Below the pieces are notes generated by a model that was not told the DNA's origin, searched no databases, and saw only the letters and a list, made by a program, of their open reading frames with translations. The translations under genes were made by a program, and so were the position numbers. A DNA stretch of 64,000 nt, taken from contig UQRY01000002.1 in assembly GCA_900543675.1 (NCBI GenBank), positions 17,750 through 81,749 of the forward strand, read 5' to 3'. Position 1 is the first letter of the stretch. Every line of letters begins with the position of its first letter. This DNA is from an uncultured Mycoplasmatota bacterium. Lineage in GTDB: Bacteria > Bacillota_I > Bacilli_A > RF39 > UBA660. Shown here one piece after another: positions 4,819 to 58,103 of this stretch.

Positions 4819-6477
4819 ATGGATAGAGAAAAATTATATTTAATTCGAAATATTGTAATAGATGCTGATAGGCACGATTATTACTTGCCTGATGATGTGG
4901 TTTCTTGTTTATATCAAGAAAATACATCCTTATTAAAAAAAATAATTGATTTTGATCAATCGACTTTAAAAAAAGAAAAACAATTTTTGTTTAATTTTGT
5001 TTTTCAATCAGAACTCCCTTCAGTAGAAAAAGAACAGATTTTAGATCATTTGATGGATTACGCCATTTCCAATCCGGCTGGATTAGTAAATAACTATACA
5101 ACAATGCTTACTACGGTTTCCAATCTTCATCCAACAAGTAAAGAGATGAACGGGATAATCAAGTCTTTAAAGAAGGATAACAATTTATCTGCGGTAATTA
5201 CTCCATTTGTCCAGGTATTAAGGATGAAACTAAATGCCAAAGAGATTTTAGAAGTACTAAGACCTATTTCTGAAGAAAAAGATTGGGATAGTCAATCTAT
5301 TTATATTATACCAAGGATCTTTTTTGACATGTGTCCGTACTTAGATGAACGTCTAATTTCTCATGATACCTTTTTACAATATTTATCTTGGGGATTAAAA
5401 GAACCAGCTATTTCTTATGCTTTAAGTTCTAAAGAAATGCTTTCTCTTGTTAGAAATAAAAAGATGACTGAAGAAGACTTAAAACAAATCATGACTTGGA
5501 TTTATCAAGAAGAAATAAAAAACAGAGTGGAAATGATCTTTACTAGTCTCAATTTTAGACGTTTAGTAGACAAAGAAAGTATAAGTGTAAAAGATGTACT
5601 TAATTTTATCGAAAAGCATTTAGAAGAAAAAGACAGCTATTCTATTTCTATTTTGACGGATATTCTTCTCCGGGTAGAAGATCAATATCTAACTAAAGAT
5701 GGCGTTCAAAAGGTAGATCATCTAGCTTTAACCGAAAAGATATCCTCTATTGGTAAGAAGTCAGAAGCAACAATCTATCCTAATCCTATCCTTTATTCCT
5801 TTTTAAAAAATGATTATAGTGAGGAAGCACTACTTCAAATAGTAAAATTTTTAAATAGTTTGAGAGAAGAACAACGATATGCTTGTAGAAATCTGTTGCA
5901 GCAGCTTCCTCAAGATATCAATCTTTCAACTATCCAAGAATTACTAGAACAGTTTGTTAAACTAGATCCAGTTGCTACATCAATGTTCACGGATATGTTT
6001 AGCATGAATAATAATAGATTATATATGATATTAAGGAAAAATAAAGAGTATTATTCTATAATTTTCTATTTATTTGATCACCTTTCTAATCCAGTAACTG
6101 AAGAAGAATTGGATAAGCTCTTCACGGTAGGGAACATCTTAACTACGATTCCTGATTTAGCTTGCGTTGGTGAAAAAGAATGTCAAAAAGTTTTTGAAGA
6201 CATAAATAATAGTCGTCATATTATCGATTTAGTCTTCTCAACGACTGAAGAGTGGCAAAGAAGAAATATGGTATCAGCCGCAAAAGAAAATTTTCACTAT
6301 AAAAATATCGCAGTAGATAGCTATTTAGCCTTTATTGAATATGCATCTATTTATCCACCATGTGAAGAAAAGATAGAAAAATTTAACCGGTATTCTAAAC
6401 AGATCGAAGAAATAGATCAATTATTGAGGGCAAAAGAAGAGAACAATTCAAAAATTAAAGCTTTAAACCATCAGTAA
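4819..6477 (+). CDS. Hypothetical protein, paralog 1 of 4 (tandem family, function unknown)
   Basis: 552 aa ORF with SD GGAGGA. Shares collinear motifs with the next three ORFs (EKLYLIRNIVIDAD..LPDDVV, FLQYLSW, VLNFIEKHLEEKD, IIDLVFSTTEEWQRRN). Confidence 0.85.
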   Translation: MDREKLYLIRNIVIDADRHDYYLPDDVVSCLYQENTSLLKKIIDFDQSTLKKEKQFLFNFVFQSELPSVEKEQILDHLMDYAISNPAGLVNNYTTMLTTVSNLHPTSKEMNGIIKSLKKDNNLSAVITPFVQVLRMKLNAKEILEVLRPISEEKDWDSQSIYIIPRIFFDMCPYLDERLISHDTFLQYLSWGLKEPAISYALSSKEMLSLVRNKKMTEEDLKQIMTWIYQEEIKNRVEMIFTSLNFRRLVDKESISVKDVLNFIEKHLEEKDSYSISILTDILLRVEDQYLTKDGVQKVDHLALTEKISSIGKKSEATIYPNPILYSFLKNDYSEEALLQIVKFLNSLREEQRYACRNLLQQLPQDINLSTIQELLEQFVKLDPVATSMFTDMFSMNNNRLYMILRKNKEYYSIIFYLFDHLSNPVTEEELDKLFTVGNILTTIPDLACVGEKECQKVFEDINNSRHIIDLVFSTTEEWQRRNMVSAAKENFHYKNIAVDSYLAFIEYASIYPPCEEKIEKFNRYSKQIEEIDQLLRAKEENNSKIKALNHQ

Positions 6478-6497
6478 AATACAAGGAGCATCAAGAC

Positions 6498-8144
6498 ATG
6501 AAAGAAAAATTACTATGCATTAAAAACATCCTAATAGAAGCAGATAAGGAAAATTGGAGTCTACCAGATGATGTAGTGTCACGGTTAATGAAAGAAGAAC
6601 TATTTATATTAGAAATTTTTAGTAGAGAAGAGCTAATCAATAAATCAACTCATCTTGAGTTTTTACTAAATACTCCTCATTTAGAGAAAGAAATCAAAAA
6701 ACAGTTGCTGATTAAATTAATCAAAATAGGGCAAGAAATGCGACTAGTGTGTAAGCAAGAAGCGTTCCATCGATATGTAGTTTCTATAATTGCGTTTTCT
6801 AACCTAGAACCATCCAAGGAACAATTAGAAAAATTTGTCGATGCAACGCGTAATCGAGCGGATCATGAGTACTTTACTGATATCATAACCGTATTAGGAA
6901 AAATAGGAATAGAAAAAAAAGAAATTCTAACCGTCTTGGATGGTATTCCGATAGAAAAGCCAGAAACAAATTCTTTCGCTACCTATAATATAGTCCGAAT
7001 TATTGATCTAAGGTCTACTTATGAATGGATCAAGAAAAATAAAATTTCTCGCGAGGACTTTTTAGAATATTTATCTTCAAGTATAAAAAATGAAAAGTTA
7101 TCCCAGTTATTACTAGAGAATGAGTTCAAAAAACTAGAATTAAATACACAAGACTTTAAGATGATTATGAATGATTTTAAAGAACAACAAGAATCATTCA
7201 CAGAACTAGAATATGAAATATTAAATAGTTACTATTTTTTAGAACAAGTGAATGAAAAAAGAATGACTGTTTCTCGCCTTTTAAACTTTATTCAAGAACA
7301 AAAATCAAAAGAAGATATTCTACCTATCCAAATATTTAACGATTTATTACCTGGAGAGTGGGGTAGGAAAGTAGACATCATCAAACTTAGTAAACAAATT
7401 GCGACAATTATTCATCAAGAAAAGAAGGGGTATTCCGAAGAGATAAGTCGATTACTAAATGATTCCAGTATTCCATCACGATTTAGTGAAAAAAATATGG
7501 AAGAAAGAAAAACACAATTTCTCAGTTTACTTACCTATTTATTACAATTAGATACTACTCAGTTTCCTTATTTTATGCGAATAGTAAACAGTGGAATCTT
7601 AAAAAGCGAAAAAGGTATTCAAGATATTACCGATTATCTAAAACAATTTGAAAAGCTATCTCCTCGTTTATTATCTACATTTAGCGAAGCGATAGCTAGC
7701 TATTCTGTTAGAACTACTACGTATGATTCGGCTTATTATGATTTGTATCCTTATCTAATTCAAAAACTATCGGATAGAGTTACTCAAGAAGAGAAAGAAA
7801 AATTAGAAACTGCGCTTTCTATTTTAGGTAATGAGAAAAGTGAAGCAAACTGTACCAATAATATAAGAAACATTCAAGAAATTATCGATCTTCTTTTTGA
7901 AACTAAGTACGATTGGCAACGTAAAAATATTCAAGAAGTAGCTTTAGATAAATATCCAGCCGACATAAAAAATAATACTTATTTAATGATCATTAAATAT
8001 ATGGCAGAAATGAAACAAAGAGATAAAAAAGAATTACCACCAAAACCACCAACTTCGCGTTATCGACATTTTCAAGCGCAGATAGACGAAGTAAATGCGA
8101 TGTTAGAAGAATTAGAACCACCAAAAACAAAACTTAAAAAATAG
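6498..8144 (+). CDS. Hypothetical protein, paralog 2 of 4
   Basis: 548 aa, SD AAGGAG, 20 nt after paralog 1. Motifs EKLLCIKNILIEAD..LPDDVV, ISREDFLEYLS, LLNFIQEQKSKED, IIDLLFETKYDWQRKNI. Confidence 0.85.
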   Translation: MKEKLLCIKNILIEADKENWSLPDDVVSRLMKEELFILEIFSREELINKSTHLEFLLNTPHLEKEIKKQLLIKLIKIGQEMRLVCKQEAFHRYVVSIIAFSNLEPSKEQLEKFVDATRNRADHEYFTDIITVLGKIGIEKKEILTVLDGIPIEKPETNSFATYNIVRIIDLRSTYEWIKKNKISREDFLEYLSSSIKNEKLSQLLLENEFKKLELNTQDFKMIMNDFKEQQESFTELEYEILNSYYFLEQVNEKRMTVSRLLNFIQEQKSKEDILPIQIFNDLLPGEWGRKVDIIKLSKQIATIIHQEKKGYSEEISRLLNDSSIPSRFSEKNMEERKTQFLSLLTYLLQLDTTQFPYFMRIVNSGILKSEKGIQDITDYLKQFEKLSPRLLSTFSEAIASYSVRTTTYDSAYYDLYPYLIQKLSDRVTQEEKEKLETALSILGNEKSEANCTNNIRNIQEIIDLLFETKYDWQRKNIQEVALDKYPADIKNNTYLMIIKYMAEMKQRDKKELPPKPPTSRYRHFQAQIDEVNAMLEELEPPKTKLKK

Positions 8145-8156
8145 GAGAATAGAATT

Positions 8157-9863
8157 ATGGATAAAGAAAAATTACTATTAATCAAAGAAATCTTGATTTA
8201 TGCCGACGAGGAGAAAATAAAATTATTACCGGCCGATGTAGTTCCTAAACTATTAAAAGAAAGTATCGATATTTTACAGACTTTAAAAAATGATGAGTCT
8301 ACACATAAACCACTTTACTTAGAATTTGTTGTGAAGGCAGATATCGAGGATAAAGAGTTGAAAAAACAATTATTAGAGGAAATCATGGAAATAGGAAAGA
8401 CTATTCCTTCTTATGATGAAGATAAAACAAAAAATTTTAATCAATATGTTACTTCAATTATGAAATTTAATACTCTTGGTCCAACCAAAGAACAACTACT
8501 TAGTTGGGCGAAAAAAACAAAAAATAGAGGAAAAGATAGTCAGTCAAGGATGAATAAAATCATTGATGAATTCCAGACACATGAATTTTCTAATCAGGAA
8601 ATTTTATCCGTGTGTCAGTCCTATCTTTCTAGTGATGTTGGTATAACCGATGCTGACATAACTTTACTCAATATTCATTTTATTTTAAGTAATGAAGATA
8701 TATATCAGTGGCTAAAAGAAAAAGAAATTTCTCGCGAAAATTTCTTGAAATACTTATCTTGGGCGATGGAAAAAAGTGAAATTGCCTCTTTACTAGATGA
8801 AGATAAATTCTTTTCGCTAGAGATTAATGCCGAAGAGGTTGATCAACTACTAACAAAAATGAAAAACCAGAAATCACCAAATTTAGATTTAGAAGAAATA
8901 TTACTAAACGACAATTTTCAAAGTTTAGTATGCTGTCAAAATATCAATATATCTTCTTTCCTTGAATTTCTTCAAGAGATAGAAGAAAAAGAGGATCATT
9001 TGTCCTTAGAAGTGTTTAATGCGCTTATTTCAGAATATTGGAATGAAATTTATGAAGAAACAAACTTACACGATAACTCTTGGCCAATCATTGAACTAAG
9101 TCAAAAACTTGCCTCTATAATTAGAAAAGTACCAGAAAAGTATCCAGAGAACTTAATCACTATAATAGACGACGAAAATTTCGTCCAATTATTGGGACGA
9201 GAGGAAGACCTAAAGAACAGTCAAACTCAACTCATCCATTTATGTGAATTTTTATCTCAACAGGATGAAATGAATCTCGATCTTCTGATAAAAATTTTAG
9301 AATATAGTAATATTTCGGGAAGTATGAATTCTATCTCTGATCTTATTTCCTTCTTCAAACAATTCGTACAACTGGATTATTCCCTTATAGAGTCACTTCA
9401 TCAATCGATAACCAGTTCAAATGTAAAGTACATTTCTTATAATAATGAACAAATTTATCAAGTGTATCCTTATCTAATAGGAAAGTTATCTGATCCTGTA
9501 ACTAAATTAGAAGAGAAGCAACTAGAAACGGCTCTTTCTGTTTTAGATCATGCAAAGTATGGAGAAACTGATACGTTAAACATCTATCGTGGAGTTATCG
9601 ATCTTATTTTCGAAACAAGATACAACTGGCAACGCCAAAATATTATTGATGTTGCGTCAGAAGATTATCCATCGAATTTAAATAAAGATGCTTATTTAAG
9701 TACTATCTTCTATATGTCTAAAATGAAAGAAAGAGATGAAAAAGAAATTCCACCAGAATTTTTTGCTCCTTCATACGAGCTTTACCAAAAACAAATCGAT
9801 GAAGTGGATAACTTGTTAAAACGATTGGAACAAAATAATCCTAAAATATTACAGAAAAAATAG
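8157..9863 (+). CDS. Hypothetical protein, paralog 3 of 4
   Basis: 568 aa, SD TAGGAGA, 12 nt after paralog 2. Motifs EKLLLIKEILIYAD, ISRENFLKYLSW, FLEFLQEIEEKED, VIDLIFETRYNWQRQNI. Closest to paralog 2. Confidence 0.85.
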   Translation: MDKEKLLLIKEILIYADEEKIKLLPADVVPKLLKESIDILQTLKNDESTHKPLYLEFVVKADIEDKELKKQLLEEIMEIGKTIPSYDEDKTKNFNQYVTSIMKFNTLGPTKEQLLSWAKKTKNRGKDSQSRMNKIIDEFQTHEFSNQEILSVCQSYLSSDVGITDADITLLNIHFILSNEDIYQWLKEKEISRENFLKYLSWAMEKSEIASLLDEDKFFSLEINAEEVDQLLTKMKNQKSPNLDLEEILLNDNFQSLVCCQNINISSFLEFLQEIEEKEDHLSLEVFNALISEYWNEIYEETNLHDNSWPIIELSQKLASIIRKVPEKYPENLITIIDDENFVQLLGREEDLKNSQTQLIHLCEFLSQQDEMNLDLLIKILEYSNISGSMNSISDLISFFKQFVQLDYSLIESLHQSITSSNVKYISYNNEQIYQVYPYLIGKLSDPVTKLEEKQLETALSVLDHAKYGETDTLNIYRGVIDLIFETRYNWQRQNIIDVASEDYPSNLNKDAYLSTIFYMSKMKERDEKEIPPEFFAPSYELYQKQIDEVDNLLKRLEQNNPKILQKK

Positions 9864-9874
9864 GAGATAAAAAC

Positions 9875-11578
9875 ATGAATATAGAAAAATTAAATAGTAT
9901 AAAAGAAATTCTGATTAAGATGGAAGAATATCAAGTAGAACTAATTAATCCTGAAGAATCTTTTCAAAAATTATTAAATGAAGAAGAAGAAACTTTACAG
10001 TTATTAGCAGAATTACCGCTTCTTCCTAATCAAGAAGCCAAAGAATTATATGAATTTTATCTATCTTTAAATAATACTAGGCATAAATATAGAATATTAC
10101 GTTATTTACTAAAAGATGAAACTAATCCTAAGAATTCGTTAAATGTAAATGTACTTGATGCCTTTTATCGCTTAAATCCAAGTGAAAAAAATCTATTTGG
10201 ATTTATAAAAAATATGGAACAAGTACCTGGAGTAGAAGAGAATTTTTTATTTATCACCTCGTATTTTCAAAAGGGACTAGGGGGATTTTCTAAACTAAGT
10301 AATCAGGAACTTCTTACTTTTCTAAAACCTTTTTATATAGACCGCCGGAGTTTTCTTTCAGGGTGGAGATTAAAAGAAGTGGCTGAATATTTAAGTAAAC
10401 TACAGGAAGAGAACAAGTTATTGACTAAGCAATATCTAACACAAGAAGAAATGTTAGAGTTATTATCCAAAAGTATAGATAATACCAATATTATTTCTAT
10501 TTTATCGTCTTCTAGTTTACTCAATATGTTAGAAAATAAACAGATAACACGAAAAGAGTATCAAACGATAATTCAACTGATTCTAAAAGAAAAAGAGGAT
10601 TATCAATCTGTGAAAATAACGGGATTCTTCACAGAGCCTAATTTAGAACGATTGATTACGGCATCTAATCTCTCAATGGAAGAAGTAATTCGTTTTGTTC
10701 AAGAACGTCAAAAATATCCGCTTAAAGAGAATATAGTAGCGTTAAGGATGTTTGAACAATTACTTTCTGATGAATGGTGTGACTATTGTTTAGCTACTCA
10801 TGAAAATCCACTTGTCTTAAGTCAAAAATTCGCTAGCTGGTTACAGATGCCTGCAGAATACTCTGGAAGTTTTATTAGTCATTTAGATAACCACAAAACC
10901 GACATCATTAGAATTCTAGAAAATGGGAAGAACCAACAAGAAAATTTTCAAGAAATGGAAGAACTAATTAACTTTATTAAAAATCTTCTTCCATATACGA
11001 GGATAATGACACTAAATTTGTTGGATAAAACCTGTCTTTCTTCTGTTACTTCTTTTCAAGAAGCCTTAACGAAGTTAAAACCATTAGAAGATAAGAGAGT
11101 AGATTTACCGTTATTAAATACAGTATCCTCATTAATCGATAATGACTGTTTTGAAGAAATGATAGCCACTAATCCAGATAGAAAAGAAGTTCTTTCCTAC
11201 TTAGTCATGAAAGAAATCAATACTAATGATCCTTTATATGTAGAAAAATTAAATACAGTTACTCGTATTTTAACCTCACGTCATTTTCTTTATCATGTGA
11301 ATCAGGTAGTAGAAAATGAACAATTATTTCAATTGATCAATATGATTTTTACTTGTGATAAAGAGTGGCAATTAACGAATCTTTATCAAATATCTACCGA
11401 AGAATATAGAGAAATATCTCCAGATACTTATTTACTACTCCTTCATTACATGAAAGAAAATCAGTGTCGCGATCAAATAACGGATAAAGACGAGTCTATA
11501 TATAGAAAGTATATTCGTCAAATTGATACGATGATAGAAAGTAAAAACAATAAAGTATATAAGAAAAGGAAAAAATAA
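9875..11578 (+). CDS. Hypothetical protein, paralog 4 of 4 (most diverged)
   Basis: 567 aa, SD TAGGAGA, 11 nt after paralog 3. Weaker versions of the same motifs (EKLNSIKEILIKME, MLELLSKSI, VIRFVQERQ, LINMIFTCDKEWQLTN, YLLLLHYM). Confidence 0.8.
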   Translation: MNIEKLNSIKEILIKMEEYQVELINPEESFQKLLNEEEETLQLLAELPLLPNQEAKELYEFYLSLNNTRHKYRILRYLLKDETNPKNSLNVNVLDAFYRLNPSEKNLFGFIKNMEQVPGVEENFLFITSYFQKGLGGFSKLSNQELLTFLKPFYIDRRSFLSGWRLKEVAEYLSKLQEENKLLTKQYLTQEEMLELLSKSIDNTNIISILSSSSLLNMLENKQITRKEYQTIIQLILKEKEDYQSVKITGFFTEPNLERLITASNLSMEEVIRFVQERQKYPLKENIVALRMFEQLLSDEWCDYCLATHENPLVLSQKFASWLQMPAEYSGSFISHLDNHKTDIIRILENGKNQQENFQEMEELINFIKNLLPYTRIMTLNLLDKTCLSSVTSFQEALTKLKPLEDKRVDLPLLNTVSSLIDNDCFEEMIATNPDRKEVLSYLVMKEINTNDPLYVEKLNTVTRILTSRHFLYHVNQVVENEQLFQLINMIFTCDKEWQLTNLYQISTEEYREISPDTYLLLLHYMKENQCRDQITDKDESIYRKYIRQIDTMIESKNNKVYKKRKK

Positions 11579-49185: not shown

Positions 49186-49240
49186 CCTATACAAACCAAA
49201 TTGTCTTAATATTCATATTTTATATTAGGTGATAAACAAT

Positions 49241-49888
49241 ATGAAAAAATTCTATCCGAGTAACTGTTTTATACTAGGACCAACTGGGCCGACAGGGCCT
49301 ACTGGGCCTAGTAATGGCATTATTGGTCCCACCGGTCCAATGGGAATGACGGGTCCAACAGGTCCCACCGGTCCAATGGGAATGACGGGTCCAACAGGTC
49401 CCACCGGTCCAACGGGAATGACGGGTCCAACAGGCCCCACCGGGCCAATCGGAATGACGGGTTCAACGGGCCCAACGGGTCCAGAAATAAATAATAATTA
49501 TGCTTTATTCCAAAATCAAGATACAGATATTACTTCTGGGACATTGATTCCCCTTTCTACGCAGTTTAGTGGCGGAAGTCCAACGATTACAGTAAGTGGC
49601 TCAACCATTACTTTACCTAGTCCAGGCACATATTACGTTTCCTTTAGTTTAACAGGCAGATTAGGCACTACTCAAAATGGAACCATAATTCCAATTATTG
49701 GTGGCGCAATCCAAGATCGTTATACTACCATCAATAATACCAATACTACTAATCCTGATATCACAATAGAAGATGGAGTTTTAGTTCAAGCACCTAGTAC
49801 TACTACTATCCAATTCTTCTACAGCGGAAGTACAGATATGTCTAGGGCTAACTTCTTTGTTTCTGTATTTAAAGTTTCCAACCAATAA
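49241..49888 (+). CDS. Collagen-like (G-X-Y) repeat protein with BclA-like globular C-terminal domain
   Basis: 23 G-X-Y triplets (GPT/GPM/GMT) with one register break, then a ~135 aa Thr/Ser/Gly-rich beta-type domain. ATG at 49241 after SD AGGTGA. Confidence 0.85.
49277..49483 (+). repeat. Tandem 9/36-bp coding repeats ([12 protein letters not shown] units)
   Basis: Near-identical units ggtccaacaggtcccaccggtccaatgggaatgacg repeated. Locally GC-rich compared with its surroundings. Confidence 0.9.
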
Positions 49889-51568: not shown

Positions 51569-51716
51569 AAAACAAGATATGAGTTAAACAATAATGAGAA
51601 AATAACGCTAGTGATTATTGGATTAGTTCTAGTTTTTGCATCTTCTTTCTTTTCCTTCATATAAAGGGAGAAAAAACTCGATATCAAATAATAATTTAGA
51701 AAGGATGGAAGAAAAA

Positions 51717-52082
51717 ATGAATAAAGAAAAATTAACACTTTATTTAATGATTGGAGAAATAAAATTTAGTGCTACTTTAGAAAATAACGAAACGACAAAA
51801 GAATTACTCCAACGCTTACCTTTAGAAATAGAAATGAAAGAATTAAATGGTAATGAAAAATATTATTATTTTGATGAGCACTTACCTAGGAATGCCTCTT
51901 TAGTAAATAAAATTAATGTAGGCGATATCATGCTATTTGGTGATAATTGCCTAGTCATTTTCTATCAGTCTTTTGTAACTTCTTATTCTTATACAAAACT
52001 TGGAAAAATAGATAATCCCGATTCATTAGCAGAAGTCCTAGGCTCTGGTAATATTAAAGTAAAAATAATGAAAGGAAACTGA
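51717..52082 (+). CDS. Cyclophilin-like-fold protein (Cyclophil_like type)
   Basis: IKFSATLENNETTKELLQRLPLEIEMKELNGNEKYYY...VGDIMLFGDNCLVIFY...LGKI. ATG at 51717 after SD AAAGGATGG. Confidence 0.7.
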   Translation: MNKEKLTLYLMIGEIKFSATLENNETTKELLQRLPLEIEMKELNGNEKYYYFDEHLPRNASLVNKINVGDIMLFGDNCLVIFYQSFVTSYSYTKLGKIDNPDSLAEVLGSGNIKVKIMKGN

Positions 52083-52094
52083 AAGAAAGGAACA

Positions 52095-52688
52095 ATGAAC
52101 AAAAATAGAATTAGATATTGTCAACGGGATTTTCATTTGGCAGAAATAGAAGAACAACAATTAGACTGGAACTTAGAAAAATATGGTTGTGGTCCAACTT
52201 CAATTGCGAATATTTTAATCAATTATGGCTATTCCTTTAATCCTGTAGATATTGCCAAGAAAATACTATTTGATCGAGAAGGAAAGTTTGATCCTACTTA
52301 TCTAAGAAATAAAGGAATCCATCCCGAAGGATTAATTTATTGCTTAAAGCGGTTAATCATAGAAGATAAACTAAATATTTCTTACTGGATTATCCATATC
52401 GATTTCTCGCATCCTGACAAACAAAAGAATCAAATAATCAAATGGGTAAAAGAAGGGAATATGGCAATTATCCATGTCGGCCCTTCGGAAGGAAGTCCAC
52501 TAACTTTTTCCCAACATGGTCATTACTTAGTGGTTAGTGATGTCGATGACGAAGAAAATTTATATGTCATTAATTCTAATGAGATAGGGGATAATCAATT
52601 GGGTGTTCCTTTTAGATTCTCCTTGGTAATCGATAATATGCTAGGAAGAAAAGACTCCTTTCAATTTCTATTCATAAAAAATAACTAA
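52095..52688 (+). CDS. Peptidase_C39-like (papain-fold) cysteine peptidase domain protein
   Basis: YCQRD (oxyanion Gln), YGCGPTSIANIL (nucleophile Cys), HGHYLVVSDVD (His), VINSNE. No signal peptide. 12 nt after the previous gene. Confidence 0.7.
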   Translation: MNKNRIRYCQRDFHLAEIEEQQLDWNLEKYGCGPTSIANILINYGYSFNPVDIAKKILFDREGKFDPTYLRNKGIHPEGLIYCLKRLIIEDKLNISYWIIHIDFSHPDKQKNQIIKWVKEGNMAIIHVGPSEGSPLTFSQHGHYLVVSDVDDEENLYVINSNEIGDNQLGVPFRFSLVIDNMLGRKDSFQFLFIKNN

Positions 52689-52763
52689 AAAGTGAATATT
52701 TTTGCCAAGTGTTATAAAGTATTATATAATAAGTGACATGTCAAAAAAGAAAGAAGTGTCACG

Positions 52764-54242
52764 ATGAAGAAAAATAATGAGGAAAAGTTTGAAAAGCAAT
52801 TAGAAGAAATTTTTACTAAAGGGAATCAGTATTACTCTGATCAAGAAATTATCGAAAGAACGGAAGTAGCCACTAAATATTTAGATAAACGAAGAGAGTA
52901 TGAATTAAAAAGAAAGATAAAAATATTTTGCGCTTTAACACTTAAAGATTTTAACTTAAAAATTAAGTGGATAAGAGAATCTTTTTTTAAAACGAAAAAC
53001 AATACCTTAGTTTATGATTGGCTATCCTTAACTACTATATTAAAAGCTTCCTCTTTAGAAATACAGGAAATCCTACTAAATAGCCTTCTGTTCAATCATG
53101 TCTTTGAAAGAAAACAGGAATCTCTTCCAATCTCTAACTTTCCTCGTTATGGAGTGGAACTAGAATATTGTTCTTTACAATTTGAAATGATCAGGACATT
53201 AGCTACTACCGATCAATTACTAGCCAAGATGATGTATGCTATGAAAATACCTGAAGAATTAGTTAGTCAAATTACTAATTGCTTAGTCTTCGAGAAAAAG
53301 AACGTTACAACAAAATGGAACCTATCTAAAGAATGTGGCAATGATTGGACTCCTGAAATATCTTCACCCATTATGACAAATTCCTTAAATGACTTAAATC
53401 AATTAAAAGCAGTTTGCATGTTGTTTAAAGAACTAGGCGCTATGACGGATGAAGCAACAGGACTACATATTAATATCGATGCTAATTATTTTGAGGGTAA
53501 TATTACGGCGTTAAAAAACTTGTTAATCATTTGGGGAGAATGTGAAGAACTATTCTACAAGCTAGCAAGTGGGGATCATAAAAGAATCAGAACTGTGGCC
53601 AAACGTTTTTGTTCTCCAATTAAAGATAATATTCAAAAAACATTCCAAGAAAATCCTACGTTAAAATTAGAAACGAAAGAAGATTTTTATTCTTTTATTT
53701 ATACTATTCAAGTGCGAAATCGCCTAGAAACGGTATTACGATTAAAGGGAGTAAATTTAAAAGCTTATGATGATATAGAAACACTTACTGAGTTAGAAAA
53801 ATATAATCTATTTAAGAAGTCCTTTTCTAAAACAGACTTTTATCATTACGGAGTACGCTATACGAGCCTTAATTTTAGTCAGATGAAATGGTATAAAAAA
53901 GATAAAGGTAGAATTGAGTTTCGGATATTTGATAATAGCTTATCTTATCAAGTGGTTATTGAAAACTTATTATTGATTGCGAGGCTTTGTGAAGTTAGTT
54001 TGAATCTTACAAAATCAAATCAAAGACAAAGTCAATTTTTCTTACTCCAAGAACATGAAGTAAGTGAAGAGGAGAAATTAAACCGACTACTAGATTTATT
54101 ATTTGATGAAAAACAGATAAAAGAAGTCTTTAAACAACGGTGGCAGAGAGTAAAAGACGACTCTTTCTACCAACAATTTACAGGTGAAATAGCTACTTTC
54201 TCTCATCGTGAATCATCCCATTACTTATCGAAACACTTATAA
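52764..54242 (+). CDS. Amidoligase_2-family (GS/GCS-fold COOH-NH2 ligase) protein with ~115 aa N-terminal extension
   Basis: Ordered family motifs GVELEY, TPEISSPIM, TGLHINID, YTSLNF, GRIEFRIFDNSL. Confidence 0.75.
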   Translation: MKKNNEEKFEKQLEEIFTKGNQYYSDQEIIERTEVATKYLDKRREYELKRKIKIFCALTLKDFNLKIKWIRESFFKTKNNTLVYDWLSLTTILKASSLEIQEILLNSLLFNHVFERKQESLPISNFPRYGVELEYCSLQFEMIRTLATTDQLLAKMMYAMKIPEELVSQITNCLVFEKKNVTTKWNLSKECGNDWTPEISSPIMTNSLNDLNQLKAVCMLFKELGAMTDEATGLHINIDANYFEGNITALKNLLIIWGECEELFYKLASGDHKRIRTVAKRFCSPIKDNIQKTFQENPTLKLETKEDFYSFIYTIQVRNRLETVLRLKGVNLKAYDDIETLTELEKYNLFKKSFSKTDFYHYGVRYTSLNFSQMKWYKKDKGRIEFRIFDNSLSYQVVIENLLLIARLCEVSLNLTKSNQRQSQFFLLQEHEVSEEEKLNRLLDLLFDEKQIKEVFKQRWQRVKDDSFYQQFTGEIATFSHRESSHYLSKHL

Positions 54243-54287: not shown

Positions 54288-55361
54288 CTATCTTTTTTTT
54301 GCCAATGATTTATATAAAGGGCTACCTAATTGATCTTTATCCATATTCTGCATATGTCCTTGATAATGGATAGTATCTTCTCCTTCAGGAGTTAAATAAT
54401 AAACTTGACAGCATTTAATGTCTTTAGTTAGTAAAATTGGTTTTACTGCCCGTATTCCCATATGCCAATATCCTTGATAACCAATAGAACCCATGCCTGC
54501 TGAACAGTGTACATGAAGACCAATTCTCCCTAATGAACTTCTACCACTTACCATCGGAATTAAATGATAAGTTTCTGTCCATTCATTCGTTCTTCCTAAA
54601 TAGATTTCATCGGGATAAAGCCATATTCCTTTATCTCCAATTGGAATTTTTTCAATAGTATTTTCTTTTTTCATATCTAAGATAGGATCAGTATAAATTC
54701 CAACGGTATCATGTAAAGTCAAGTTGACGGAATTAGGATTAATTAAAATTTTATCCTGAGGGCTAATGAAAATATCTGGATCACTTTTTTGCATTCTATT
54801 CTTGATTTCTTCGCCACTTAACATTCCCGATGAATAGATACCACAAGATTTTTCTTCATCAATCTTTCTTGTTTCATTAGATTTTTCTAAGCTAGGGAAA
54901 AAGGTTAAATTCGCAATCTTGATATCCGGATAAATAATGGTTGGTTTGGTTGCGATAATGCTTAAAAATAAGTGTCCATCAAAATTATCAGTTTTATAGC
55001 CATTTGTTAACTCGATACTAACCCCTAAAAGAGATAGTGTTGCTTTCCCATTCATCACAGGAACAAAACCATGAGTGGTTACTTTTTCTATCGTTTTGGC
55101 TAAATATACTTTATGAGGTTGTAAGAGTAATCCTTCTTCTGGAATTACTACTTTTCTTAAATTGACTGGCTGATCGTTTAATACTTCATGTAGATAATTA
55201 CGACTATTTTTGGTATCGATAATATCATAGTCAAAGACATATAAAGTATTTCCTAATCTTAAATCACAACTATTTGGTTTATTTAAAGCATCTCCTTGTA
55301 AGTTTTCAATTACAATATTGCCTAATTCCATCTGTCTTTTTATCTCTTTACTTGTTAACAT
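54288..55361 (-). CDS. Tandem double dCTP-deaminase/dUTPase-fold protein (both domains catalytically incomplete)
   Basis: The N-domain has NGKATLSLLGVSIEL...LFLSI, with the RSS motif, Arg and Glu all replaced. The C-domain has SGRSSLGRIGLHVHCSAG...WHMGI, with RSS and Arg kept and the catalytic Glu position Gly. Confidence 0.75.
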   Translation of the reverse strand: MLTSKEIKRQMELGNIVIENLQGDALNKPNSCDLRLGNTLYVFDYDIIDTKNSRNYLHEVLNDQPVNLRKVVIPEEGLLLQPHKVYLAKTIEKVTTHGFVPVMNGKATLSLLGVSIELTNGYKTDNFDGHLFLSIIATKPTIIYPDIKIANLTFFPSLEKSNETRKIDEEKSCGIYSSGMLSGEEIKNRMQKSDPDIFISPQDKILINPNSVNLTLHDTVGIYTDPILDMKKENTIEKIPIGDKGIWLYPDEIYLGRTNEWTETYHLIPMVSGRSSLGRIGLHVHCSAGMGSIGYQGYWHMGIRAVKPILLTKDIKCCQVYYLTPEGEDTIHYQGHMQNMDKDQLGSPLYKSLAKKR

Positions 55362-55902
55362 CTGACTTCACCAATACTTTCTGTTTCTGTTCATACTCGG
55401 TATAGAGCCTAGAAGCTGTTGGCTCCACTTGCCCAAAATATTTTCCACGATATTTATTCTTATCATCACCAATTAATGGATAATAATAAACTCGCCCAAT
55501 TGGCATATTTTTATATACTCTAGTTGGATTATTACAGACAATCTCTAATGTCCAAGTGCCTTCGAATCCATTATCTCCAAACCCAGCAGTGACATGAATT
55601 TCCATACCTACTGCAGCTAACTCTTCTGTTCCCGCTAAAAGAGGAACAAATCCATATGTCTTGGTAAACTCTAAAGTTCTACCAATATAAAGTTCATTTG
55701 GCTTTAAGATTAACCCTTCATCAGGAATTATAATTTCTTTGGTAGGTGTAGAATTAGTAATACTTAAAAATGGTGCATCATAGACTTTGACAGAGTCACC
55801 AAGTGTTACTTCAATAAAATTCTCTTCTAAATGATCATTACTATTATCTACATATATACTTTTTCTAGTTATTTCTTCTTTAATTGCTTCTTTACTTAAC
55901 AT
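55348..55902 (-). CDS. Single-domain dCTP-deaminase-fold protein (Glu retained, Ser/Arg motif lost)
   Basis: AGTEELAAVGMEIHVTAGFGDNGFEGTWTLEI aligns with Dcd [32 protein letters not shown]. ATG at 55902 after SD GGAGGAGG. Its 3' end overlaps the next gene by 14 nt. Confidence 0.75.
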   Translation of the reverse strand: MLSKEAIKEEITRKSIYVDNSNDHLEENFIEVTLGDSVKVYDAPFLSITNSTPTKEIIIPDEGLILKPNELYIGRTLEFTKTYGFVPLLAGTEELAAVGMEIHVTAGFGDNGFEGTWTLEIVCNNPTRVYKNMPIGRVYYYPLIGDDKNKYRGKYFGQVEPTASRLYTEYEQKQKVLVKSDVNK

Positions 55903-56131
55903 ATAAACCTCCTCCAAAAATTTTAACAAAGATCATATCAAATAACAATCGAAATTAAGAAAATTATTTAACAATATGAGTATTAAAGGTTACTGCTCAG
56001 CCATAAATAGAAAATTTTATATCCCAAAAGTAAAAAAATATGACTTTCTAAGTTTTTACAAATGTTTTTTTGTAAGAGCTAAAGACTTTTTGTTAGGAAT
56101 TTGATACAATCCTTTTTAGGGGGGAGAAATT

Positions 56132-57748
56132 ATGGTGGAATATGAAAAGTTTAGTGAAGAGACTAAAAAGTTCTTTCAAAAAGCAATGGATATCTACGCA
56201 AATATCGAACCATTAGAAATTCAAAAAGTAGTAGAAAAGATTGGGGGTGATAAACAACAATATACGTTATCAAGATTAGACAAAAAAGTATTTTCCATGT
56301 TTATCGCAAGTTTTACTACGGATATCCACCTACAATCTCTCTTAGGAGAATATGATGATATTAAAAAAGAAGATTTATTTTCTTTTATTGGGATTAAAGA
56401 AGAAGAGATTAAACCATTAGAAAGTTCTTATTTAACGTATTATAATACGAAATTTAAATTAGATTTATTCAATATGGTAGAAGAAGACTTAGATACTTAT
56501 TCTATTTTAGAAATTACTCCAGAATTTATTTACTATTTGTTAAGAAAAAACGTAGCTGGATCAGACGTAGTTGCTTATTTTATGGACTCAATGAAAGAAC
56601 ATTTAAATTATTCAGGATTTACTCATCTTAATCATCCTAGTTTTAAAACAGTCAATAATTATCTAGTATTGAATCATATGATACAGTATAAAAATTCTAC
56701 TACTAAAAAGAATTCTCTATTTTTAACTGAAGAGGATGATTTAACTTTAGAACAGAAAAGACAAAATTTATTTACGAAAAGTCAACAAGAATTATGGACT
56801 CTTTTGGAAGAAATAAAGAAAAAGTTTATTGGTCAAGAAAGACTAGTAGAAGATTTATTTTATACGATGATTTATAACCAAGATTTAGCTTCTAATAAAA
56901 GATTAACGGATGGGGAGAGAGCAATTCTATTTATAGATGGACCAACGGGAACAGGAAAAACTGCAATTACCCGAGAAATTTGCCGTAAACTAACTATTCC
57001 CGTTGCTTTTGCTTCATCTGTCAATTATTCTTCAACCGGATATGAAGGAGCGAATATCACGGATTTGTTAGCACAATTATATCAAGCATCTGGAAACAAT
57101 TTACAACTAGCAGAACGGGGAATTATTCTATTAGACGAATTTGATAAATTAGCTTACACATCGGATGATGGAATCAAAATGAAAAAAGCCGTTCAACAAC
57201 AACTTCTTGATTTTCTTGGTGGTGGAGTATATCCCGTAAATATTGGAAATAAATTTTTAAAAACAGAACAAGTAGAATTTGATACGTCAAAGTTAACCTT
57301 TATTCTTCTAGGCGCTTTATCAGAACTAAGAAATAAAAAAATAGTAGATAGTGATATCTATTCTATTGTGCCAGAAGATTTAATTGCCCATGGCTTAGAA
57401 CGTGAACTAGTAGGAAGAATCAATACTTATTTACACACTGATGAATATACCAAAGAAGATTTACTTAGAATTTTAAAAGAATCTTCTATCAGTCCAATAC
57501 TGAGTTTAAAAAAGGGAGTATCTTTATATGGAAAAGAGTTAATCATCGATGAAGAGATCTATGAAGATATCGTAAATGCAGCTTACGATTTGCACAGTGG
57601 CGCAAGAGGACTACAAACGATTATTAATAATATTCGAACATCTTTTCTTAAAGAAATACTAAGAGGAGAAGAACAAACCATTTATTTAGGAAAAGAAAGA
57701 GTAAAAGAAGATATTGAAAAAATATTTGTAAGAAGGATAAACCGTTAA
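56132..57748 (+). CDS. ClpX-like AAA+ ATPase paralog without Zn-finger and IGF loop, with a ~260 aa novel (Clp_N-like?) N-terminal region
   Basis: FIGQERLVEDL, Walker A GPTGTGKT, pore-loop position GYEG (ClpX has GYVG), Walker B ILLDEFDK, VPEDLIAHGLERELVGRI, sensor-2 GARGLQ. Confidence 0.8.
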   Translation: MVEYEKFSEETKKFFQKAMDIYANIEPLEIQKVVEKIGGDKQQYTLSRLDKKVFSMFIASFTTDIHLQSLLGEYDDIKKEDLFSFIGIKEEEIKPLESSYLTYYNTKFKLDLFNMVEEDLDTYSILEITPEFIYYLLRKNVAGSDVVAYFMDSMKEHLNYSGFTHLNHPSFKTVNNYLVLNHMIQYKNSTTKKNSLFLTEEDDLTLEQKRQNLFTKSQQELWTLLEEIKKKFIGQERLVEDLFYTMIYNQDLASNKRLTDGERAILFIDGPTGTGKTAITREICRKLTIPVAFASSVNYSSTGYEGANITDLLAQLYQASGNNLQLAERGIILLDEFDKLAYTSDDGIKMKKAVQQQLLDFLGGGVYPVNIGNKFLKTEQVEFDTSKLTFILLGALSELRNKKIVDSDIYSIVPEDLIAHGLERELVGRINTYLHTDEYTKEDLLRILKESSISPILSLKKGVSLYGKELIIDEEIYEDIVNAAYDLHSGARGLQTIINNIRTSFLKEILRGEEQTIYLGKERVKEDIEKIFVRRINR

Positions 57749-57749
57749 G

Positions 57750-58103
57750 ATGAAGTATCAATATAATGGCCATTTACTAGAAGAAGAAAGAATAGAACTA
57801 GTCGCCACGGAAATCATGATGAAATACCCAGAGATCAATCGTAGAGATGCTGAAAAAATAGCTGCCCTAGAAGGAAGTATTTCTACTAACTGTAATTTCG
57901 ATATGATATTTACCCGATTATATCATATTATGCTAATCATGAATCAGGACAAGAAAATAGTTAGGAAAGTATATAAAGATCTTCTTTTCTATTTAAAGGA
58001 AAATCAATCGACAGATAAAATAGATGTTTATGAACAAACGATAATAGAAATATATCGATTTTTAATGAATGAAAGAGAATTCCCTTTATTAGAAGAATAT
58101 TAA
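57750..58103 (+). CDS. Small hypothetical protein translationally coupled to the ClpX-like ATPase
   Basis: ATG lies 1 nt after the upstream TAA. 117 aa, helical, no motif. Confidence 0.6.
   Translation: MKYQYNGHLLEEERIELVATEIMMKYPEINRRDAEKIAALEGSISTNCNFDMIFTRLYHIMLIMNQDKKIVRKVYKDLLFYLKENQSTDKIDVYEQTIIEIYRFLMNEREFPLLEEY

Follow-up and report, generated by a model that had tools for sequence, protein, structure and literature searches.

The subject of this work is a pair of overlapping genes, here called S and L, carried by the minus strand of a 64,000-nucleotide (nt) stretch of DNA from an uncultured Mycoplasmatota bacterium (contig UQRY01000002.1, positions 17,750 to 81,749; hereafter the window). 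Their products contain three domains of the deoxycytidine triphosphate (dCTP) deaminase family, Dcd, and the residues of the Dcd active site are shared out between these domains. The genes, their domains and their expression signals are as follows (positions in the window; lengths in amino acids, aa):

54288-55361, minus strand: gene L, 357 aa, ATG start, two Dcd domains (LN and LC)
54288-54830, minus strand: LC domain, L residues ~178-357
54867-55361, minus strand: LN domain, L residues ~1-165
55348-55361, minus strand: S/L overlap of 14 nt (S stop 55348-55350, L start 55361)
55348-55902, minus strand: gene S, 184 aa, single Dcd domain
55908-55915, minus strand: Shine-Dalgarno sequence GGAGGAGG, 5 nt 5' of the S ATG
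55920-55948, minus strand: possible promoter, TTGTTA-17-TAAAAT plus the TG of an extended -10 (consensus match only)

The overlap points to a translational coupling, by which both proteins would be co-translated; the L ATG is preceded, at a distance of 6 nt, by a GGTGA, and homologous pairs found elsewhere overlap by 1-26 nt. The initial annotation, made from the sequence alone, had recognized both the coupling and the Shine-Dalgarno sequence, and both stand. It had bounded the first gene at 55929, up to which the open frame of S does extend (TTG codon), but the ATG at 55902 is the likely start because it lies 5 nt from GGAGGAGG and because the homologues open with MLxK at this place. The G+C content of the pair (~31%) is the same as that of the flanking DNA.

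Three Dcd domains and one set of catalytic residues

The Pfam family PF22769 (DCD, cut-off 27 bits) has one match in S (E 6.8e-22, 78.6 bits) and two in L (E 1.1e-51, 175.3 bits). The presence of three Dcd-fold domains over two proteins, already noticed in the initial annotation, is thus far beyond chance, and the match to PHROG 1663 (“dCTP deaminase”) is concordant. L also scores above the cut-off of the NCBIfam model TIGR02274 (119.1 for 92.8), this score being the sum over its two domains.

In the deoxyuridine triphosphatase (dUTPase) superfamily, the catalytic cavity is made of one subunit's motif III together with its neighbour's motifs I, II and IV (PMC12524310). In the same way, the Dcd:dut and Dut enzymes have a common trimer core with sites at the clefts between monomers (PMC5519681). 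S and L were aligned to solved Dcd enzymes with HMMER and MAFFT, and an alignment was built for each family (118 sequences for S, 107 for L). The S segment “AGTEELAAVGM...TWTLEI” pairs with “EGKSSLGRLGL...HITLEL” of Mycobacterium tuberculosis, and the LC segment “SGRSSLGRIGL...YWHMGI” with “GRSSLGRVFL...KITLEI” of Methanocaldococcus jannaschii. Gly302 of LC falls on the E145 position, which carries the substitutions E145A/E145Q in entries 2hxd and 3gf0. In LN (“NGKATLSLLGV...LFLSI”), the catalytic Ser, Arg and Glu are all gone. The motif strings are exactly those quoted initially and the alignments uphold the residues that had been assigned by eye. The motifs that are kept are the following:

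55573-55575 and 55543-55545, minus strand: Asp110 and Glu120 of S motif III HVTAGFGDNGFEGTWTLEI, retained
Y151-R165 of S: C-terminal lid YRGKYFGQVEPTASR, retained
minus strand: LC motif I NPNSVNLTL, invariant
54537-54539 and 54525-54527, minus strand: Ser275 and Arg279 of LC motif II GRSSLGR, invariant
54405-54407, minus strand: Gln319 of LC motif IV, invariant

S lacks the Ser and Arg of motif II (GTEELAA) and the Gln of motif IV (IGR). An ordinary Dcd enzyme carries Ser, Arg and Glu in every subunit and forms a homotrimer with three equivalent sites. S and L do have Dcd domains above the curated Pfam threshold, but S keeps the Glu only, LC the Ser and Arg only and LN none of the three, so that none of the domains is complete, neither protein is predicted to be competent alone and the sequences preclude equivalent sites. 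Since the sites of the superfamily join motif III of one subunit to motifs I, II and IV of its neighbour, S and LC could rebuild exactly one canonical site; judging by the aligned residues, they would be the only combination restoring the complete Ser/Arg/Glu set, S giving motif III and the lid and LC motifs I, II and IV. This agrees with the earlier proposal of at most one competent site. On this view, the complementary losses do not mean that function is lost; only one of the three interfaces (S motif III and lid against LC motifs I/II/IV) would be kept.

Conservation follows this partition, the residues of the composite S and LC site being invariant in the 107-118 homologues. In S, 17 of the 19 positions of motif III are at least 95% conserved among the 118 homologues; the motif is essentially invariant in the family (H-TAGFGDNGF-GTWTLEI) and the lid follows the pattern Y.GKY..Q...T.S. 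The invariants of LC in the 107 L sequences are motif I (NPNS.NL), motif II (GRSS.GR) and Gln319 of motif IV. Its motif III is a conserved non-catalytic one, HCSAGMGSIGYxGYWHMG, in which Asp is replaced by Ser292 and Glu by Gly302 (across the family, Asp by Ser/Ala and Glu by Gly/Ala/Ser). LN contains no canonical catalytic residue (GKATLSL...LFLSI) and its motif III is variable; invariance or near-invariance is seen for a KPNS motif, G105, S110, G113 and Asn151, the last of which stands where motif IV normally has its Gln.

Homologues, natural fusions and ancestry

Searches with L returned 128 homologues of its architecture at E<=1e-5, nearly all of 340-360 aa. S gave 513 matches, of which the best 120 are all at least 55% identical. 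A search of genome contigs with one protein query led to four close relatives. Among 1.84 billion representatives scanned, the L architecture was limited to a few 50%-identity clusters, the other ~2,000 matches being mostly single-domain Dcd proteins. Five of the L matches are long chains. Three of them are natural single-chain S-LN-LC fusions (P0076, 532 aa; P0113, 549 aa; P0115, 550 aa), while P0026 and P0112 are fusions truncated at their N-terminus; P0115 and P0076 were confirmed as intact translations on their own contigs. The existence of such fusions fixes the domain stoichiometry at 1:1:1. Furthermore, 20 bacterial loci were retrieved, representing about 8 lineages with identity down to 45%, and in all 20 the L-type open reading frame (ORF) either has an overlapping S-type ORF directly upstream or is joined with it in a fusion.

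Viral contigs contain single-domain relatives of ~172 aa (32 matches), none of the 32 having the two-domain L-type form. These relatives carry all motifs in one chain: NPNSVNLTL, GRSSIGR(LG), HVTAGFGD.GF.G.WTLEI, (G/C)Q and GKYQ. S, LN and LC are each 38-48% identical to these intact viral proteins and 26-33% identical to one another. As each domain is nearer to intact relatives than to its sisters, the pair looks like an asymmetrically diverged triplicated Dcd gene: an ancestral single-domain dcd gene would have been triplicated and its copies subfunctionalised. LN keeps a “PNSxDLRLG”-type motif I and has an inserted helix, which had suggested an origin from another Dcd subfamily. We dropped this idea, since S, LN and LC share their best single-domain relatives and motif I varies among these relatives.

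The representative library also contains P0361 (347 aa), a different two-domain Dcd protein in which the complementary losses occur in the reverse order. Its N-domain retains GRSSTGR and has a degenerate motif III, and its C-domain has lost motif II and retains “...HWVLEI” and a GRYQNQ lid. It would seem that subfunctionalised tandem Dcd proteins evolved on more than one occasion. Another match, P0384, is a fusion of Dcd with a classical Dut.

A probable 1:1 pseudo-trimer with three unequal interfaces

The reading that we prefer, to which we give a probability of roughly 65%, is that S and L form a 1:1 pseudo-trimer with one working site, likely the housekeeping dCTP deaminase of the clade. 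After co-translation, S and L would join 1:1 and their three Dcd jelly-roll domains would imitate the ordinary Dcd homotrimer. At one interface, motif III of S (the hairpin for base and sugar, which holds Asp110 as well as Glu120, the deaminase residue) and the S lid would face motifs I, II (Ser275, Arg279) and IV (Gln319) of LC and make up a complete canonical active site. At a second one, motif III of LC, with Asp changed to Ser and Glu to Gly, would face motifs I/II/IV of LN and be incapable of deamination. The third, between motif III of LN and motifs I/II/IV of S, would be decayed.

Mean conservation, which is 0.69-0.74 for whole domains, reaches 0.98 in S motif III and 0.90 in LC motifs I+II+IV; it is 0.88 in LC motif III and 0.78 in LN motifs I+II+IV, and 0.66 in LN motif III and 0.71 in S motifs I+II+IV. 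These values pair up in one way only, which suggests the ring order S(III) to LC, LC(III) to LN and LN(III) to S. The opposite handedness is disfavoured because the invariant catalytic residues would then meet degenerate partners.

The second interface combines the conserved hairpin HCSAGMGSIGYxGYWHMG of LC with the KPNS motif, the G(K/R)xxLSLLG segment and the invariant Asn at motif IV of LN. On the basis of these sequences, it is probably structural or else a non-catalytic nucleotide-binding or regulatory pocket. The candidate pocket also has a conserved Lys/Arg at the phosphate-binding position. That it would be a dedicated allosteric pocket for a nucleotide such as deoxythymidine triphosphate (dTTP), with catalysis split from regulation, is a tentative proposal that we find rather doubtful. 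If true, S:L would rely on a division of labour between a catalytic and a regulatory site, where ordinary Dcd enzymes rely on homotropic cooperativity between three sites; no report of such a split in the dUTPase superfamily was found in the literature.

Structure prediction agrees with the compact arrangement. AlphaFold2 models the natural fusion P0076 with a mean predicted local distance difference test (pLDDT) of 86 and a predicted template modelling score (pTM) of 0.88, disorder being limited to the S-LN linker. For S and L of the window joined end to end, pLDDT is 89.1 and pTM 0.89, with disorder in S residues ~161-183 only. In these models, a pTM of 0.88-0.89 requires confident mutual placement of all three domains. 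The alignments given to AlphaFold2 consisted of the fusions and the L homologues, as MAFFT kept placing S homologues on LC. Compared with the PDB by Foldseek, the best match is the two-domain Agrobacterium DCD 2R9Q (E 1e-14, TMt 0.72), followed by single-domain Dcd and Dcd-Dut enzymes and, weakly, by the Epstein-Barr virus (EBV) dUTPase (TMt ~0.33). BFVD gives a single-domain phage “dCTP deaminase dUTPase” with 44% identity. Together with the natural fusions, the constant adjacency and the motif partition, this packing supports the 2+1 pseudo-heterotrimer put forward in the initial annotation.

Both the activity of S:L and its role in the cell are predictions. The deaminase-specific residues (Glu120 in S, Ser275 and Arg279 in LC) are all invariant, and S:L most likely would convert dCTP to deoxyuridine triphosphate (dUTP). 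It may continue to deoxyuridine monophosphate (dUMP) and thus be bifunctional, since it keeps, as do the M. tuberculosis and M. jannaschii enzymes, the Asp of motif III and the Gln of motif IV; the monofunctional Dcd of Escherichia coli has an Ala at the position of this Gln. In the cell, S:L would have the housekeeping role of supplying thymidylate synthesis in a spore-forming clade of uncultured gut Bacilli.

Neighbourhood of the pair

In other lineages, the neighbours of the pair are genes for valyl-, arginyl- and cysteinyl-tRNA synthetases (ValRS, ArgRS, CysRS), HU, Der, Lon, Spo0A, SpoIVA, PGK/TIM and ABC transporters. The occurrence of Spo0A, SpoIVA, YabP and YutH among the neighbours indicates that the clade is made of spore-formers. 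No third partner gene is conserved beside S/L across the ~8 lineages examined.

In the window, the pair is flanked by a divergent locus (56132-58103, plus strand) encoding a 538-aa protein, with an N-terminal region of ~210 aa of unknown nature followed by a ClpX-like AAA+ module, and then a 117-aa ORF without any family match. The 538-aa protein scores 132 bits with the NCBIfam ClpX model, far under its cut-off of 359, and has weak matches to the PADLOC families DolB (2.6e-6) and IetA (6e-5) and to PHROG 4339. This ClpX-like ATPase gene (56132-57748) and its 117-aa partner are found in some strains of the species of the window and in one sister species only, and are absent from all other lineages examined. 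Strains with a 100% identical L carry instead a HipA-like kinase gene, encoding a HipA_C kinase domain, and a gene for a 390-aa protein. Such a variable slot adjoining S/L is seen only in the species of the window. Recurrent siting by known defence systems is not observed over the ~8 lineages, in which the neighbours are mostly housekeeping genes. S/L thus behave as a core gene pair that here borders a variable slot. The ClpX-like gene and the 117-aa ORF may form a module of their own, accessory or defensive, that has no relation to the dcd pair.

The co-occurrence check called for by the initial annotation therefore gives a divided answer: the pairing of S and L is confirmed in 20 of 20 bacterial loci, whereas that with the ClpX-like gene does not extend beyond the two species mentioned above. 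The presence of this gene and the island-like location had been taken as arguing against a plain dcd; this argument is not supported, a HipA-like gene replacing the ClpX-like one beside an identical L.

Alternative explanations

Several points weigh against the 1:1 pseudo-trimer. The contact of S Glu120 with LC Ser275/Arg279 and the handedness of the ring are read from conservation, and the location of Ser/Arg and Glu on different subunits in Dcd itself is taken by homology from the dUTPase superfamily. The S part of the AlphaFold2 alignments is only ~5 sequences deep, the model of S and L of the window is an artificial concatenation, and AlphaFold2 has a bias towards the packing of the known trimer whenever the domains are Dcd homologues. 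Lastly, S scores 65.7 with TIGR02274, under the equivalog cut-off of 92.8 for dCTP deaminases. One could imagine that no joint ring exists, S being a homotrimer, L acting alone as a herpesvirus-like monomer or a domain-swapped oligomer, and their adjacency reflecting a shared pathway. Dcd domains normally homotrimerise, the best structural match of the models (2R9Q) is a two-domain protein with no known third partner, and the two-domain P0361 with its complementary losses seems self-sufficient. However, an S homotrimer would have no motif II Ser/Arg at any site, and in L alone motifs I/II/IV of LC would meet nothing competent, motif III of LN being degenerate and variable. Furthermore, the natural fusions fix 1:1:1 domains, AlphaFold2 packs all three with a pTM of 0.88-0.89, and nothing but a contact between S motif III and LC motif II would make sense of the invariance of both. 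Separate assemblies are therefore highly improbable.

A pseudo-trimer with changed chemistry is unlikely, though it deserves more credit than separate assemblies. It might be a dUTPase only, might have a different or modified pyrimidine nucleotide as its substrate, or might be a dead regulator that binds deoxynucleoside triphosphates. The non-canonical conservation of the LC motif III variant and of the LN face suggests a novel ligand site, S stays under the NCBIfam equivalog cut-off and L is named “hypothetical protein” by NCBI. Yet the invariance extends beyond the phosphate-binding residues to the deaminase-specific Glu, Ser and Arg, and S motif III is near-identical to that of the intact single-domain relatives. 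The initial annotation had preferred a sensor or defence protein to a housekeeping enzyme: S:L would sense nucleotides or act as a regulator without catalysis, or would deplete nucleotides as an anti-phage effector together with the divergent ClpX-like ATPase. The full catalytic set is indeed found in no single chain, the pair of the window adjoins a strain-variable slot (occupied by the ClpX-like AAA+ gene or, in other strains, by a HipA-like gene), and the ClpX-like protein weakly resembles DolB and IetA. But one composite canonical site is fully invariant, which is hard to account for without catalysis; PADLOC gives zero matches for S and L; the ClpX-like gene is missing from strains with an identical L and from lineages beyond one sister species; the neighbours in other lineages are housekeeping genes; and the two-domain L-type gene occurs in 0 of the 32 viral-contig matches. 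The known defensive dCTP deaminase combines a zinc-dependent cytidine-deaminase domain with an N-terminal kinase domain (bioRxiv 10.1101/2021.04.26.441389), a difference of architecture that the initial annotation had rightly pointed out. For S and L, Pfam returned DCD alone and neither of these two domains. The absence of PADLOC matches, the variable ClpX-like gene, the housekeeping neighbours and this different domain architecture led us to reject a defence role of S/L, and the sensor or defence explanation as a whole is the least probable of those considered here.

Other features of the window

Beyond the pair, several features were observed in the window:

4819-11578, plus strand: four successive ORFs of 548-568 aa without Pfam match at 1e-5
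41486-41721, plus strand: group II intron domains D1-D4 (Rfam RF02005, 92 bits)
42203-42315, plus strand: group II intron D5/D6 (Rfam RF00029, 52.8 bits)
43875-44273, plus strand: DDE transposase fragment, 132 aa
44890-47946, plus strand: 1018-aa ORF without Pfam or PHROG match (like the transposase fragment, in a stretch of low G+C, 25-26%)
49229-49888: collagen-repeat / BclA-like protein
51636-54242, plus strand: cyclophilin-like (PF18050), C39-like peptidase (PF13529) and 492-aa amidoligase_2 (PF12224) genes, convergent with L

The cyclophilin/C39/amidoligase cluster is kept beside S/L in the species of the window, and a homologue of the amidoligase, without the other two genes, adjoins the pair in two close relatives (L012 and L013, 57-72% identity); the 492-aa protein also matches PHROG 2443 (“amidoligase enzyme”). 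The four ORFs of 548-568 aa may be tandem paralogues and sit in a housekeeping stretch (RuvX, YceG, O-methyltransferase, U32 peptidases). The group II intron domains together span only ~830 nt (41486-42315), which looks like an ORF-less group II intron, and its 3' end meets the start of an ORF (42303-43850) for a camelysin-like / DUF6273 protein. The region from 42 to 54 kb of the window looks accessory.

Immediately next to the dcd genes of two distant lineages, that of the fusion P0115 and that of the pair P0034, lies a gene whose product is a small protein of the CTP_transf_like type, with 141 aa (L047 7582-8007) and 126 aa (L051 8962-9342), respectively. The L047 gene shares its strand with the fusion gene, whose start it overlaps. 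Such proximity may be fortuitous or may relate to the metabolism of cytidine nucleotides.

Comparison with known systems

Dcd-family enzymes are textbook homotrimers, as exemplified by those of E. coli (1XS1), M. tuberculosis (2QXX/2QLP), M. jannaschii (1OGH) and Bacillus halodurans (4XJC) and by phage Dcd (PHROG 1663). S/L resemble the homotrimeric Dcd and Dcd-Dut enzymes in their fold, their motifs and the Ser/Arg/Glu/Asp/Gln and lid residues of the composite site. An ordinary Dcd has three identical subunits with equivalent sites under cooperative control by dTTP through a central channel (PMC4827122), whereas S/L are two genes for three non-equivalent domains, with one canonical interface, one that is conserved and non-catalytic and one that is decayed.

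The two-domain DCD family (PF06559 DCD_N + DCD; NF005734; Agrobacterium 2R9Q) has, like L, a tandem Dcd fold of ~350 aa. L scores 17.7 with PF06559 (cut-off 21.4) and 13.3 with NF005734 (cut-off 283), and 2R9Q gave no sequence match with the family profile even at E<=1, the similarity found by Foldseek being one of fold only. Membership of L in this family was thus rejected on sequence scores. We know of no published functional study of 2R9Q, which is a structural-genomics entry.

The monomeric dUTPases of herpesviruses (EBV 2BSY; pseudorabies virus, 8ZWQ) obey the same logic of duplication and fusion with a single motif set retained, and divide motif III and motifs I/II/IV likewise (PMC12524310). 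However, these are two-domain single chains from eukaryotic viruses, with the motif order III-I-II-IV-V and no deaminase chemistry, while S/L are bacterial, comprise three domains on two chains, which would close a pseudo-threefold ring, and retain the Dcd-specific Glu/Ser/Arg. The pseudo-heterotrimeric dUTPase of Drosophila virilis and the engineered covalent trimers of human dUTPase are also trimer-like enzymes made of fewer than three chains (PMC12524310; PMC4827122), and S/L similarly place three superfamily domains on fewer than three chains. The D. virilis repeats share ~88% identity and have kept their three sites intact, unlike S, LN and LC, which are 26-33% identical with differentiated sites.

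No description of a heteromeric, tandem or pseudo-trimeric dCTP deaminase was found in literature searches, and S/L are most likely a new quaternary arrangement of a known enzyme family. This has a consequence for annotation, since NCBI names S “dCTP deaminase” and L “hypothetical protein”, yet neither is predicted to be active alone. The pair also bears on the supply of dUMP and dTTP in poorly known uncultured gut Bacilli. It would be a natural case of a homo-oligomer subfunctionalised into an obligate hetero-oligomer, of which a single-chain fusion form is also natural, and a natural counterpart of the engineered asymmetric dUTPase trimers for studies of communication between sites.

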